Shown: positions 7,569-21,057 of the stretch, piece by piece | Layout of the letters: each line of letters begins with the position of its first letter | Numbering within the stretch: the first letter of the stretch is position 1 | DNA from: a virus | IMG/VR virus record: IMGVR_UViG_3300021185_003284 | Coordinates: 1 to 64,000 of that record | Reading direction: 5' to 3' (one strand) | Length of the DNA: 64,000 nucleotides | The notes under the pieces: generated by a model | The model's database searches: none | Told to the model about the DNA's origin: nothing | What the model saw: only the letters and a program-made list of their open reading frames with translations | Program-made: the position numbers and the translations under genes

Positions 7569-7596
7569 AGTGTCACAGCACCACTTAAAAAACACG
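7569..7596 (+). promoter_or_regulatory. preQ1-I riboswitch-like aptamer
   Basis: AGTG-TCACAGCAC-CACT-TAAAAAA-CACG between a promoter and the operon containing queD/queE. Confidence 0.65.
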
Positions 7597-7599
7597 AAA

Positions 7600-9484: not shown

Positions 9485-9883
9485 ATGGGAGTAGAGAAAG
9501 TATATTTAACTTGGGACGATATAAATGTACTTTTAGATAAGTTACATGAACAAGTAGGAGGGAAAGCTAGATTAGTAACAGGTATTCCAAGAGGAGGAGC
9601 AATAATAGCTATCTTATATTCTCATAGATTTGGAGTTGAGTATTTTAACAACATTAGTAATCATTATCCTCACTTATTAGTTATTGATGATATAGCTGAC
9701 ACAGGAAAAACATTTAAAAAGTATTATGATGAATGTCCAAAACCTATGTATGCATCTCTACACTATAAAAAACAATCAGTATTTAAACCTAATTACTATG
9801 TTGAAGAAGTAGGACCTGAATGGATTGTATACCCATGGGAAAATGAAAACGCAAAATCCATCCAAGATTATTTGGATAATTAA
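9485..9883 (+). CDS. purine phosphoribosyltransferase (Gpt-like)
   Basis: GIPRGG, LVIDDIADTGKT PRPP loop, WIVYPWE. Confidence 0.88.
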   Translation: MGVEKVYLTWDDINVLLDKLHEQVGGKARLVTGIPRGGAIIAILYSHRFGVEYFNNISNHYPHLLVIDDIADTGKTFKKYYDECPKPMYASLHYKKQSVFKPNYYVEEVGPEWIVYPWENENAKSIQDYLDN

Positions 9884-9910
9884 AAATAAATTACTATATT
9901 GTATTAACAA

Positions 9911-9938
9911 TGAGTCGTAGAACCTCAATAAAAACAGA
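9911..9938 (+). promoter_or_regulatory. preQ1-I riboswitch-like aptamer upstream of folE
   Basis: TGAG-TCGTAGAAC-CTCA-ATAAAAA-CAGA between the 9872 promoter and the folE ATG. Confidence 0.75.
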
Positions 9939-9947
9939 AGTTATATT

Positions 9948-10661
9948 ATGCCTAAAAAGTTTATAGAAGGAACAGAATTAGTTCGAGCCGGTTTTGCTAA
10001 CGGAATATCAAGTCAATTAGCAAAGAAACAGGAGAAAGAAGGACCTGAAGCAAGGTTAAATGCTGAAGAGAAGCAAGTTATTATAGATAATGCAGCAAAA
10101 GCATATGCAGATTTTCTAACTGCCTTAGGATGTGATTATGCTGATGATCCTAACTCTTCAGATACTCCAATGAGAGTAGCAAAAGCATACGTTAACGATT
10201 TATGGGCTGGAAGATATGCTCCACTAGATCGTATTACAGCATTTCCATCTGACGGTTATGACGGTATTGTACAGGAAAGTAATATACCTGTAACGTCTAT
10301 GTGCTCTCATCACCATCAAGCTATTAGAGGTACAGTAAGTATTGCTTATATAGCATCAGAAGATGGTAAGGTAGTAGGACTATCTAAATTAAATAGAATA
10401 GTAGAGCAATTCGGCAGAAGAGGAGCTATTCAAGAACAGCTAACTGTAGCTATACATAATGCTGTAGATAAGATATGTGAAGGTAATTTAGGAGTAGCAG
10501 TTCAAGTAAATGCAACTCATGCATGTGTATCATGTAGAGGAGTTAAGCATGGAGGAGCTTCTATGCAAACAGCTAAATTAACTGGAGCATTTCTAAATGA
10601 AGACTCAGCTAAAGCAGAGTTTTATAAAAATATAGAATTAGCAAGTATATGCAAGCATTAG
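9948..10661 (+). CDS. folE: GTP cyclohydrolase I
   Basis: DTPMRVAK, SMCSHH, GLSKLNR, IQEQLT, HACVSCRG. Confidence 0.95.
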   Translation: MPKKFIEGTELVRAGFANGISSQLAKKQEKEGPEARLNAEEKQVIIDNAAKAYADFLTALGCDYADDPNSSDTPMRVAKAYVNDLWAGRYAPLDRITAFPSDGYDGIVQESNIPVTSMCSHHHQAIRGTVSIAYIASEDGKVVGLSKLNRIVEQFGRRGAIQEQLTVAIHNAVDKICEGNLGVAVQVNATHACVSCRGVKHGGASMQTAKLTGAFLNEDSAKAEFYKNIELASICKH

Positions 10662-11706: not shown

Positions 11707-12526
11707 GATAGCACACGAATCACCAAAGAGTATTTTTAGTACTGTACAGAAATTTACAGACTACGATTATGCTTTAGTACATTTATTTGAAGAAGACGAA
11801 GAGTACCTTCAACACTTTAAAGATGCATTAGCAAACGGTAGAGAAGTAATTTTAGATAATTCTATATTTGAATTAGAAGAAGCATTCGATGCTGATAGAT
11901 TTGCATACTGGATAAAAGAACTAAAACCCACTTGGTATATAGTTCCAGATGCTTTAGAGCAATGTTTTAAGACTTGTGATCAAGCTCATAAGTTTTTTGA
12001 AAAGTATCCTAAAGATAGTCTACCGGGAAAAGCAATTGGAGTAGTACAAGGTAAAACATATGAATCAATAGCTAGCTGTTACGACTATATGGATAAAGTA
12101 GCTCCTGTAGATATGATTGCTATATCTTTTGATTATTCGTATTATGAAGAGGTTTGTCCGCATCCTAACAAGTACGTTAGTTGGATGCTAGGACGTGCAA
12201 AGCTACTTGGAGATTTAGTTAAAAACGATGTTATTAATAAAGATAAGCCTCATCATTTATTAGGATGTGGTTTACCTCAAGAGTTTATGTTATATAGAGA
12301 ATCTAACTATGATTGGATATACTCTTTAGATACATCTAATCCTGTAGTACATGGAATAAAAGAAATAATCTATAAAGATCAAGGACTATGGGATAAAGAA
12401 TCTCAGAAGTTATTTGAATTAATTAACTATGAAGTTAATGAAGATCAATTAACATATATTAAAAGTAATATTCAAAAATTTAGATGGTTTACAAATGGAC
12501 AGCAAAATGTGGATAACGTTCTTTAG
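11699..12526 (+). CDS. dpdA: TGT-fold 7-deazaguanine transglycosylase-like protein (DpdA family, probably DpdA3 type)
   Basis: ILDNS, VPD, VVQG, HHLLG, SLDTSNP resemble TGT motifs; lies in the que cluster. Confidence 0.7.
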   Translation: MIKIAHESPKSIFSTVQKFTDYDYALVHLFEEDEEYLQHFKDALANGREVILDNSIFELEEAFDADRFAYWIKELKPTWYIVPDALEQCFKTCDQAHKFFEKYPKDSLPGKAIGVVQGKTYESIASCYDYMDKVAPVDMIAISFDYSYYEEVCPHPNKYVSWMLGRAKLLGDLVKNDVINKDKPHHLLGCGLPQEFMLYRESNYDWIYSLDTSNPVVHGIKEIIYKDQGLWDKESQKLFELINYEVNEDQLTYIKSNIQKFRWFTNGQQNVDNVL

Positions 12527-13043
12527 CCAAACTGGTAAAGAAATAGCAGACATAGCGGAATCAATAGGTCGATGGCCTGATAGAATTTATACTAACGATA
12601 GACCGGAAGATCTTCGAACTGTAGATCCTAGAATTGTAGAAAAAGGATTCTATACATTACCTAATAAACCTACGTTAGAGGATTATGAAGAGTTTTTAGT
12701 TTATTTTCCGGAAGCTACAATAACATTACATGGTTGGTTAAGAATTATGCCTCCTGAAATTTGTGATAAGTTTAATATATACAATGGACATCCAGGTTTG
12801 ATTACTAGGTACCCTGAATTAAAAGGTAAAGATCCTCAACTTAAAGCATATCTAGCAAAACATGAAGTAATGGGAGCAGTAATACATAAAGTTACTGCAG
12901 GAGTAGATGAAGGAAGAGTCTTAAAGGAAATATTCTTTAACTCTTGGGGTATTACAGAAACGGAGATGTGGGAAACTATGAGGGATAGATCGTTATATTT
13001 GTGGTTAGAATTTTTAAAAGAATTATTAGGAAATACGAAGTAA
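12495..13043 (+). CDS. dpdN: PurN-like formyltransferase (DpdN-like preQ1 formyltransferase)
   Basis: GWLRIM, NGHPG...PELKG, GAVIHKVTAGVDEG; adjacent to the dpdA-like gene. Confidence 0.7.
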   Translation: MDSKMWITFFSQTGKEIADIAESIGRWPDRIYTNDRPEDLRTVDPRIVEKGFYTLPNKPTLEDYEEFLVYFPEATITLHGWLRIMPPEICDKFNIYNGHPGLITRYPELKGKDPQLKAYLAKHEVMGAVIHKVTAGVDEGRVLKEIFFNSWGITETEMWETMRDRSLYLWLEFLKELLGNTK

Positions 13044-13075: not shown

Positions 13076-13597
13076 ATGATTAAAAGAATAGCATTAGTAG
13101 GAGCTAGTAGTACAGGTAAGACTACTGTTTATGAACTACTTAAAAATAAATTACCTAAGTATGAATTCGTAAATGAGTCTACTAGAACTGTAAGTAGTTA
13201 CGAATTTCCTATTAATGAGAAAGGAACAGAAGCTACTCAGTTAGCTATTAGCTGTTTTCACTTAGAGGCTTTATTGCAACCTTATAATCAAGTTCTCGAT
13301 AGATGTTTTATGGATGTTGTAGTATATACAAGATTTATGGATAATGTTGGAGGAGGAACAATCAAGTATATTAATGATACTTGGAATAGAATAAAGCATG
13401 AATATACTCATTATATTTATTTTCCTATAGAATTTGATTCTGTAGATGATGGAGTTAGAAGTGTAAATGAAAAGTGGAGAACAGATATTGATGAAGAGTT
13501 TAAAGCAGTATTAGAAGGTGTACGTCAGCCTTACTTGACGATAACTGGTTCCCCTATGCAAAGGGTAGAACAAATATTAAAATTTATAAATGTTTAG
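13076..13597 (+). CDS. P-loop nucleotide kinase (NadR/AAA_28-like)
   Basis: GASSTGKTT, LDRCFMD, DDGVR. Confidence 0.8.
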   Translation: MIKRIALVGASSTGKTTVYELLKNKLPKYEFVNESTRTVSSYEFPINEKGTEATQLAISCFHLEALLQPYNQVLDRCFMDVVVYTRFMDNVGGGTIKYINDTWNRIKHEYTHYIYFPIEFDSVDDGVRSVNEKWRTDIDEEFKAVLEGVRQPYLTITGSPMQRVEQILKFINV

Positions 13598-13955
13598 ATA
13601 CGGAGCAAAATTACTAAGAGTAGTAGATGGTGACACAGCAGATGTTATGATCGATTTAGGATTTAGTACCTGGGTAAAAGCTAGGTTAAGATTTAAAGGT
13701 GTTGACACCTGGGAAAAGAGAACAAGAAACCTAGAGGAAAAAGCTAAAGGTTTACTTGCTTCGGAATTTACGAAAAAATACCTAGAGATGAATGATGGTA
13801 AGTTTGAAATACAATCTTACGGTAAAGGTAAGTACGGTAGAGTACTTGCAGAAATATTCATAGATGGAGAAGAAAAATCTCTTAATGATTTATTAATAGA
13901 AAACGGTCACGCTTATGTTTATGAGGGTGGTAAAAAACAATTATTTAAAGGTTAA
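13590..13955 (+). CDS. thermonuclease (SNase-like)
   Basis: RVVDGDT, RFKGVDTWE, GKYGRVLA. Confidence 0.9.
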   Translation: MFRYGAKLLRVVDGDTADVMIDLGFSTWVKARLRFKGVDTWEKRTRNLEEKAKGLLASEFTKKYLEMNDGKFEIQSYGKGKYGRVLAEIFIDGEEKSLNDLLIENGHAYVYEGGKKQLFKG

Positions 13956-13956
13956 T

Positions 13957-14865
13957 ATGGCAGAAGTTAAAAATTATCAAGAAGTTGTAGATATTGCATC
14001 TAAACATTTAGGAACTGTAGGAGGTGCTGGGTACAAAGATACCTATGCTCCTGAGCTACTAGTAAAAATACCAAGATACTTAAATAGAGAAGGTTACGGA
14101 TTAACATCTGATAGCTTTGTAGGAGTAGATACATGGAATTGTTACGAAGTATCAGCAATTACTACTAAAGGTCAACCAGTAGCAGGAATGCTAAAAATCG
14201 TTTGCCCTAGTAATAGTGAATTTCACGTAGAATCTAAGTCAATTAAATTATATTTGAATTCATTTAATATGACCAGAATAGGAGATAATGCAGCTGATTG
14301 TATTAGTGGTATTGAAGCAAGAGTTAAGAGAGATCTAGATGAATTATTAGAGACTACAACAACTGTTACTTTCTATGCTTCAGATCTAGAAACTGAACCT
14401 TTATCTTTTCAAGAGTATACAGATTTAGGAGAAATAGCTAACTTAGATGCTATAGACTTTACAGCTTTCCAATCAGATGAAAGTCAGCTTGATATTGAAG
14501 AGCATAGCGATACTACTACTGTTAGATTTAGTTCTAACTTATTAAGGTCTAATTGTAGAGTGACTAACCAACCAGATTGGGGTGATGTATTTATTAAGAT
14601 TATAGGTAAAAACGTACCAACAGCAGAATCAATAGCTAAATATATTGTTAGTCATAGAACAGTTAGTCATTTTCACGAGGAAATATGTGAAATGGTATTT
14701 AAGCATTTATCTGATGCTTGTAAACCAGAACAGTTAATGGTTGCTTGTTTATATACTCGTAGAGGAGGATTAGATATTAATCCTATTAGAGCTACTCATC
14801 AATCATTAATTCCAGAATTTTTTACTAACCCAGAATATACTATTAGGAAGACTTTAAGACAGTAA
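13957..14865 (+). CDS. queF: NADPH-dependent preQ0 reductase (bimodular QueF)
   Basis: VESKSIKLYLNSF, LRSNCRVTNQPDWG, FHEEICE, YTRRGGLDINP; start moved to ATG 13957. Confidence 0.95.
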   Translation: MAEVKNYQEVVDIASKHLGTVGGAGYKDTYAPELLVKIPRYLNREGYGLTSDSFVGVDTWNCYEVSAITTKGQPVAGMLKIVCPSNSEFHVESKSIKLYLNSFNMTRIGDNAADCISGIEARVKRDLDELLETTTTVTFYASDLETEPLSFQEYTDLGEIANLDAIDFTAFQSDESQLDIEEHSDTTTVRFSSNLLRSNCRVTNQPDWGDVFIKIIGKNVPTAESIAKYIVSHRTVSHFHEEICEMVFKHLSDACKPEQLMVACLYTRRGGLDINPIRATHQSLIPEFFTNPEYTIRKTLRQ

Positions 14866-15539
14866 TGGAAACTTGCATCATCAATGGACCACTGGGGTGT
14901 GATTTATCGCTCAGTCATGTAAATAAACATAATGGAGGAGGACCTTTCTTTATAGAAAAGTTTTTGAGTAAACCAGGTGTTCTCGATAAGTTTAATGCTA
15001 CTACATCCGTAATGGAAATGTGTAGCGGTCCAGGGTTTATGGGCTACTACCTAGCATATAAGTTAAACCTTAATAATGCTTACTTTTTAGATATTAATCC
15101 TGAAGTAGCAGATTCTTATAAGGAGAATAAAAAGAGAGTTAATTTTAAAGTTAGTCATAAAGTGTCTGATGGTTTTAAATCATATACAGGTCCAAAAGTT
15201 AATTTAATAGTTCTTAACCCTCCTCATTTAGTAGAAGAAAAACAATTTGATAATCTAGCTAAGACTGTCCCTGAATGGTTTCCTACAGAAACACCAGAAG
15301 AAGAGAGACAATCTAGATTAATTTTATTAGACGAAGATTTTAAATTTCATACTCATTTTTGTGAGGAAGTTTACGACAGGTTAACTAAAAATGGTCAAAT
15401 AGCTTTTTTAGAAAATGAAAAGTTTATACCTCATAAAAGACTAGAAGAACATTTAGGAGATAGATTTAGTTATGAGTTTATACAATTTCAAGATACACTC
15501 GATGAAGGATACTATTTATTAATAGCCACTAAAAAATAA
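14865..15539 (+). CDS. class I SAM-dependent amino-methyltransferase
   Basis: EMCSGPG motif I, LDIN, NPPH motif IV. Confidence 0.8.
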   Translation: METCIINGPLGCDLSLSHVNKHNGGGPFFIEKFLSKPGVLDKFNATTSVMEMCSGPGFMGYYLAYKLNLNNAYFLDINPEVADSYKENKKRVNFKVSHKVSDGFKSYTGPKVNLIVLNPPHLVEEKQFDNLAKTVPEWFPTETPEEERQSRLILLDEDFKFHTHFCEEVYDRLTKNGQIAFLENEKFIPHKRLEEHLGDRFSYEFIQFQDTLDEGYYLLIATKK

Positions 15540-20964: not shown

Positions 20965-21057
20965 ATTTTAAGTTTTTTAGTTTTTTTTCGCTCTCGACGT
21001 TGGTCCTTTAATTAAATTTTCTTATATTAATTAATATTAAAAGTTATAAAATATTTT

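Follow-up and report, generated by a model that had tools for sequence, protein, structure and literature searches.

The window (the whole 64,000-nucleotide stretch analysed) belonged to an immuto-like phage: its best cultured match was Flavobacterium phage vB_FspM_immuto, with ~75% DNA identity across the deazaguanine cluster. A short element occupied the 64-nt gap from a phosphoribosyltransferase-like ORF (end 9883) to folE (9948), and positions 9911-9938 read UGAG UCGUAGAAC CUCA AUAAAAA CAGA (TGAG TCGTAGAAC CTCA ATAAAAA CAGA in the DNA form). The stem began 10 nt past a TATATT box, the folE ATG (9948) lay 9 nt past A9938, and folE was the first ORF in the ORF map of a tightly packed or overlapping run reaching queF and beyond. 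The features at this site, at a second copy, and at two genes of the pathway were as follows, with equivalent positions numbered after the T. tengcongensis (Tte) preQ1-I aptamer:

9873..9900, plus strand: promoter-like site TGGATA-16-TATATT (sigma-70-type consensus scan)
9895-9900, plus strand: TATATT box, conserved as (C/G)TTATATT(A/G) in relatives
9911..9914, plus strand: P1 5' strand UGAG, pairing with 9924-9927; G9914 is the equivalent of Tte G5 at the pocket floor
9915..9923, plus strand: loop UCGUAGAAC, corresponding to Tte U6 C7 G8 N9 A10 G11 N12 A14 C15
9924..9927, plus strand: P1 3' strand CUCA; C9924 is the C16 equivalent
9928..9934, plus strand: A-rich L3 AUAAAAA, 7 nt; A9934 is the equivalent of Tte A29
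9935..9938, plus strand: P2 3' strand CAGA, in which C30 pairs with G9920 (G11), A31 and G32 follow, and A33 is the putative partner of U9918 (N9)
9939..9947, plus strand: AU-rich linker of 9 nt with no Shine-Dalgarno sequence (sequence reading)
9948..10661, plus strand: folE (GTP cyclohydrolase I), the putative regulated gene (PF01227, 5.3e-42; NCBIfam FolE)
7569..7599, plus strand: twin element AGUG UCACAGCAC CACU UAAAAAA CACG AAA (model R1, 38 bits, E=1.4e-5)
12495-13043: DpdN-like formyltransferase gene (family search)
13915..14865, plus strand: queF (preQ0 to preQ1 reductase; TIGR03138, 1e-70)

The genes folE, queD, queE, and queF were all identified by family search, and DpdA was assigned solely via the immuto annotation under matching DNA; the presence of queF made preQ1 an intermediate in this phage. 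The twin was preceded by the same promoter box and ended 3 nt (AAA) before ATG 7600, which opened a 90-aa ORF with a hydrophobic C-terminus and no family match, followed downstream by queD (7883), queE (8337), a ferredoxin gene, and a phosphoribosyltransferase gene. A covariance model built from 22 phage-element sequences (R1) gave exactly two matches in the 113-kb phage genome, the folE copy and the twin; both placements were 5' leaders heading 7-deazaguanine synthesis genes (folE and queD-queE, respectively). Three further genes were recorded in the window: (i) a HemK/PrmC-like N5-glutamine-type methyltransferase gene at 14865-15539, whose start was the last base of the queF stop codon and whose product may have DNA as its substrate or add a further modification to the base; (ii) a thermonuclease/EcnA-like nuclease gene at 13590-13955, within the deazaguanine run between a P-loop kinase-like gene and queF; and (iii) a tRNA gene at 1123-1196 (Rfam tRNA, 66.8 bits).

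An earlier note on this DNA had read the site as a preQ1-I riboswitch directly upstream of folE. Its sequence, coordinates, spacings (10 nt and 9 nt), and placing of the C15 equivalent at 9923 were all correct on re-reading, and what it stated of Tte (ligand contacts U6, C15, and A29; pairs G11-C30 and C9-G33) agreed with the published structure (PMC7641330). The Tte ligand is read by U6, C15, and A29; S2 is built from C9-G33 and G11-C30, which flank the non-canonical A10-A32 and G8-A31, and C7 forms a triple with G11-C30 (PMC7641330); the roles of U6 and of the G-C closing pair in the pocket and its floor have also been described (PMC11625349, PMC7641330). The specificity cytosine lies directly 5' of the P1 3' strand and is preceded by A in types II and III, and the resulting 'AC' before the P1 3' strand is a hallmark of type II (PMC11625349). 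Compared with this, the site showed a 4-bp P1 hairpin at 9911-9927 with a 9-nt loop, a 7-nt A-rich L3, CAGA at 9935-9938, and a putative two-pair pseudoknot made of G9920-C9935 and U9918-A9938; C9923 was the equivalent of the specificity cytosine C15, and every Tte pocket and S2 position had its equivalent, U9-A33 included (PMC7641330).

The loop-plus-tail pattern, with up to three mismatches, occurred once in the window against 0.17 expected. The minimum free energy of the 77-nt leader was no better than that of shuffled sequence (z=0.42), as would be expected of a 4-bp hairpin, and it was thus the comparison with relatives, rather than the folding energy, that supported the element. The stability of P1 was marginal, with -1.5 kcal/mol at 37 C against -3.9 at 10 C in folding runs that included Tte and B. 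subtilis sequences for comparison. In the copies folded, L3 could alternatively pair with a U-rich stretch ahead of the AUG, and this appeared in the minimum-free-energy structure only at 10-20 C. The source of immuto was a Baltic Sea mesocosm; a cool habitat, which would stabilise short helices, is plausible for the immuto group and, by extension, for the window phage.

The earlier note had named absence of conservation upstream of folE in related phages as evidence against its reading; the element was conserved there, with a covarying P1. The immuto folE leader harbored the same element with identical loop and tail and the stem GGAG/CUCC instead of UGAG/CUCA. The pattern TCGTAGAAC NNNN ATAAAAACA, in which loop and tail were fixed and the stem strand was left free, matched in 44 IMG/VR contigs, and the stems of the matches before folE were complementary in all cases (GGAG/CUCC, UGAG/CUCA, or UGUG/CACA); two unrelated groups of matches outside folE leaders, one inside an open frame and the other without a long frame, had unpaired stems. 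A motif-blind set of leaders from the 80 best folE relatives added the stems AGUG/CACU, GGUG/CACC, and UAAG/CUUA and the loop variants UCGUAGCAC, UCGGAGCAC, UCGAAGAAC, and UUGAAGCAC, and it also included relatives that had the TATATT box yet no folE element. Across related phage leaders the TATATT box stood 8-14 nt upstream of the stem and was kept in relatives without the element as well, and the distance from C30 to the AUG was 6-14 nt in most relatives.

Covariation was assessed on alignments fitted to the covariance model (A4 and A5), which were used instead of a MAFFT alignment (A2) that misplaced CA behind A-runs of unequal length. Over 56 distinct sequences, 99.1% of the P1 cells were paired, against 28-70% in slid-partner controls; three of the four pairs had compensatory changes, and the closing G-C pair (G9914-C9924) was present in 56 of 56. 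Crystallised preQ1-I members have a P1 of 5 bp, one more than here. Judged by this comparison, the element at 9911-9938 is more than a product of chance. U6 (U9915), A10, G11, and C15 (C9923) were invariant in the fitted rows, some loop letters having been fixed by the motif-anchored searches; in the same motif-anchored collection, C7 changed to U only in UUGAAG rows and G8 to A only in UCACAG rows. A31 and the last L3 adenine were conserved, and in every copy collected CA came directly after a run of at least 3-4 A, as the collecting patterns required, with an L3 of 5-9 nt; the sequence after CA varied freely among relatives. A14 was kept everywhere except in one variant with the loop UCGUAGCCC, which had C at this position in two copies (L197 and L198; G194:13308-13339 and G193:37241-37272). 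A14 in Tte fills the empty pocket, and the C may alter the ligand-free state of these two copies. Taken together, the positions invariant in the phage family corresponded to those that in Tte make up the pocket floor, the plane of the ligand, the triple at the ceiling, and the non-canonical pairs of S2 (PMC7641330).

The two pairs of P2 behaved differently. G11-C30 was found in 55 of 56 sequences, the exception being a misaligned row, and a pair that never changes is by itself uninformative about covariation. N9-N33 was paired in 38 of 56 (UA 25, CG 7, GC 3, GU 2, and UG 1), and permutation on 55 distinct but related sequences gave p=0.003 for position 33, with p>0.12 for each of positions 32, 34, 35, and 36, values that ignore relatedness and come from a shuffle that overstates independence. 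A first test on 43 sequences had given 67% paired with p=0.13, which was not significant; significance came only after IMG/VR scans chosen by N9 identity (C9, G9, and A9) with the tail left free had contributed C9 and G9 variants. In leader context, these N33-blind scans found C9 with G33 in eight of nine cases and G9 with C33 or U33 in five of five, the exception (L225) being a folE leader with the Tte-like loop UCGCAGUAC that combined C9 with A33. The pair was also absent from all A9 variants and from about a third of the U9 variants. The second P2 pair thus appears from these counts to have register-specific support and not to be obligatory.

The Infernal search with the Rfam PreQ1 model that the earlier note had asked for was negative, both at gathering and at E<=10. 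RF00522, whose curated gathering threshold is 39 bits, had no match in the whole window at gathering; the Rfam families at E<=10 gave no riboswitch match on 151-nt and 42-nt slices around the site; and RF00522 at E<=10 gave five noise matches of 10-17 bits in the 113-kb genome, none of them at 9911-9938 or 7569-7599. The best of the five, at 20971-21004 on the minus strand (17.4 bits), was rejected as noise, being an intergenic A-rich stretch without a convincing stem. The negative result was real, since the same search detected its positive controls, namely B. subtilis and a Flavobacteriaceae aptamer (L176, see below) at 50 bits, and the element could therefore not be filed as a member of RF00522 and was treated as a shorter variant. 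The reciprocal search of R1 against a canonical aptamer scored 2.9 bits, with no detection, so that homology to the known family rested on architecture and key nucleotides. Both low scores were attributed to deletions (a single pair in P1, a single nucleotide in L2, and about two nucleotides in L3), which brought the element, with its 4-bp P1, 3-nt L2, and 5-9-nt L3, below the size of any described member.

Among 48 related phage records, 41 carried one or two copies and none carried more, and in the records examined among these 41 the copies headed folE or queD-queE gene blocks. The two copies of two-copy records were 2.2-3.6 kb apart in all but one pair; records without a folE copy had a single element, 1.4-2.8 kb upstream of folE where both could be placed, and this upstream element headed a gene block in the leaders read. 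Such loci (L076, L080-L085, L105, and L121; G189-G194, G196, and G200) had the promoter box before folE, no folE copy, and a single upstream element, so that the folE copy has been gained or lost within the group. QueF was encoded in 38 of the 41 element-bearing records, and in the other three the folE element lay no more than about 2 kb from the contig end. Seven records had no element: two of them had QueF and five, phi13:1 and MA9V-3 among them, did not. When the contigs ending near the element were set apart, all five QueF-less records thus lacked the element. phiST, a species-mate of phi13:1, carries 7-deazaguanine DNA (PMC10516641). The association with QueF fits a preQ1-related ligand and is confounded by shared ancestry.

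Outside these phages, R1 found no genuine element in 151 sampled Flavobacteriaceae genomes; one 27-bit match was rejected, as it lay inside a minus-strand ORF and had no loop motif. When R1 was run on the leaders of 40 folE homologues from bacteria or MAGs, it matched in two contigs only, L170 (NYWG01000135.1, a 'Verrucomicrobiales' MAG) and L135 (CALMEO010000044.1). Each had the element before a phage-like folE, with 92% and 76% identity, respectively, and both are probably phage DNA binned into MAGs. Three IMG/VR loci (L228, L232, and L234) carried G9 variants of the loop (UCGGAGCAC) with the tail CACC and headed a different first gene, whose product started with MKKLL and looked like a signal peptide or membrane segment; L232 also bore an A9 folE-type copy. 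These variants indicate that the clade is more diverse than the immuto group. Streptococcus phage Dp-1 presumably has a preQ1 riboswitch before its que operon; the first 5 kb of Dp-1 gave no Rfam riboswitch match. The literature search returned no account of phage preQ1 riboswitches or of riboswitch control of phage 7-deazaguanine DNA modification, which agreed with the earlier note's statement that it was aware of no description of such control, and the literature searched described no regulation of phage DNA 7-deazaguanine pathways of any kind. A review of the preQ1 family has no mention of phages (PMC11625349), and the paper on immuto modification mentions neither riboswitches nor regulation (PMC10516641).

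The best explanation of the element, with a probability of roughly 75%, is a 7-deazaguanine-sensing riboswitch, a compact variant of the class I type II preQ1 kind that has so far been seen in phages only. The preQ1-I identity proposed in the earlier note was thus right in kind, as to architecture, pocket, and covariation, and did not extend to membership of RF00522 by the model test. In the proposed mechanism, the hairpin, L3, and CAGA would form an H-type pseudoknot at the 5' end of the folE mRNA, and a pocket bounded by the G9914-C9924 floor and the G9920-C9935 ceiling, with U9915, C9923, and A9934 between them, would bind preQ1 or its close precursor preQ0. Binding would fold the 5'-terminal 28 nt into the knot and tie up the A-rich leader together with the nucleotides that lie 10-20 nt upstream of the AUG.

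The expression platform had no hidden Shine-Dalgarno sequence (no purine-rich one was read between 9935 and 9947), and a different read-out must therefore apply. Bacteroidia ribosomes sequester the anti-Shine-Dalgarno sequence and do not use Shine-Dalgarno sequences, and initiation in F. johnsoniae is tuned by mRNA structure and upstream adenines (PMC6847099, PMC7797042). Because such ribosomes take no account of Shine-Dalgarno sequences and rely on a start region that is rich in A and unstructured, loss of this landing region from the locked leader would leave folE poorly initiated, which would make the element an OFF switch that probably represses translation without a Shine-Dalgarno sequence. 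The twin at 7569-7599 would repress the queD-queE operon likewise, and the two copies together would exert product feedback on the first three steps of 7-deazaguanine DNA-base supply; feedback on the GTP-consuming first steps would make sense physiologically. For this putative switch, we infer both the OFF/ON polarity and the exact ligand (preQ1, preQ0, or formyl-preQ1). The fuller proposition, namely that of a functional metabolite sensor with the smallest natural aptamer known (~28 nt), confined to phages, acting in product feedback, and maybe tuned to formyl-preQ1 or preQ0, is one towards which the comparison tips the balance slightly.

Four other explanations were weighed against this one. 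The same fold could serve another 7-deazaguanine, namely formyl-preQ1, should DpdN formylate the free base, or else chiefly preQ0 or CDG; the short L2 and P1 would then reflect a retuned pocket. Every G of immuto DNA is replaced by formyl-preQ1 (100%), with no preQ1 (PMC10516641), the window encodes a DpdN-like formyltransferase (12495-13043), L2 has one nucleotide fewer than that of Tte, and the Rfam model fails, all of which speak for such a shift; all class I positions that read preQ1 are nevertheless kept, including the equivalent of G5, whose O6 contacts the methylamine, and the element was found only in phage records that have QueF or whose contig ends near the element, and a changed ligand is accordingly rated as unlikely. 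The main rival, rated equally unlikely, dispenses with a small molecule altogether: the hairpin and A-rich tail would be a translational operator for a phage or host RNA-binding protein, in the style of the T4 RegA or gene 32/43 operators. A covarying short stem, an invariant loop, and proximity to the start codon are typical of protein-bound RNA operators, and the failure of the Rfam model and the weakness of P1 alone are in keeping with one; the position-by-position match to the Tte pocket and S2, including the N9-N33 covariation in the tail, would then be coincidence, the element is confined to deazaguanine biosynthesis genes, and no candidate repressor was identified.

A constitutive leader without switching, be it an mRNA-stabilising 5' hairpin or a translation enhancer rich in A, would draw on the preference of Bacteroidia initiation for A-rich leaders (PMC6847099) and on the position of the element at the predicted 5' end of the transcript. 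Such a leader has no need for an invariant 9-nt loop, for an equally invariant CA after the A-run, or for loop-to-tail covariation, nor does it explain why the 113-kb genome has the element in just two leaders, both of a single pathway, or the relatives that have the same folE promoter box without the element, and it is regarded as very improbable. Hardly any weight is given to a palindromic operator in the DNA (TGAG-N9-CTCA) for a dimeric transcription factor, to which the inverted repeat 10 nt downstream of a promoter-like box might point: the half-sites differ between the two copies (TGAG/CTCA versus AGTG/CACT) around an asymmetric spacer that is nearly the same, the conserved tail is one-sided, and the orientation always follows the gene. 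Two copies with different stems and near-identical loops fit an RNA fold and not a palindromic DNA operator.

If the type II-like riboswitch does bind its ligand, it would lower the known size limit of natural riboswitch aptamers from ~33-34 nt to ~28 nt and would mark a pair of P1, a nucleotide of L2, and two nucleotides of L3 as dispensable parts of the class I fold. It would also document a phage that balances a DNA hypermodification pathway by means of a metabolite-sensing RNA, and it would offer a simple model for translational riboswitch action in Bacteroidia without Shine-Dalgarno sequences. The searches also show that a widespread phage RNA family is overlooked by Rfam-based annotation.

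The element was finally compared with three known preQ1 riboswitches. The Tte 33-mer (PDB 3Q50; PMC7641330, PMC11625349) and the phage element shared the H-type pseudoknot plan and a near-identical loop (UCGUAG-AAC in the phage and UCGCAGUAAC in Tte), the G-C floor pair, U6, C7, G8, A10, G11-C30, A14-C15, and A31, an L3 rich in A whose last residue is the ligand-plane adenine, and a putative N9-N33 pair of matching register, for which the twin has C9 and G33 as in Tte; both lie directly before a start codon, which implies translational control. They differed in P1 (4 pairs in the phage versus 5 in Tte), L2 (3 versus 4 nt), L3 (5-9 nt with a mode of 7 versus 9 nt), and aptamer size (~28 versus 33 nt), and the 3' strand of the phage element had no Shine-Dalgarno sequence. 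Moreover, the phage element was not scored by RF00522, was found so far in phages only, and stood before genes of a DNA-modification pathway and not before tRNA queuosine genes.

The Bacillus subtilis queC type II aptamer (RF00522) shared with the phage element the P1 hairpin, the specificity cytosine with an A in front of it, a tail of the AUAAAAA type with C next to it, and a position upstream of 7-deazaguanine biosynthesis genes, but it had a longer L2, a contiguous UAG/CUA P2, and control by transcription termination; no terminator was found between the phage element and the folE ATG, where 9 nt leave no room for one. The third known aptamer came from Flavobacteriaceae, the family infected by immuto, which is the nearest cultured relative of the window phage: one of the 151 genomes (G036) harbored a canonical type I preQ1-I aptamer (L176, 1507-1542, minus strand; RF00522, 50 bits), which ended 11 nt ahead of the ATG of a gene for a yhhQ/Vut_1 queuosine-precursor transporter; the leader there had no Shine-Dalgarno sequence. 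It differed from the phage element in its 5-bp P1, its 12-nt loop with the UU...UC signature of type I, and its CUAAG tail, and the phage element, being type II-like and undetected by RF00522, was thus not a recent copy of this host version. Judged by where the host aptamer lies, class I aptamers seem to be usable at the start codon in a host group whose ribosomes do not respond to Shine-Dalgarno sequences.
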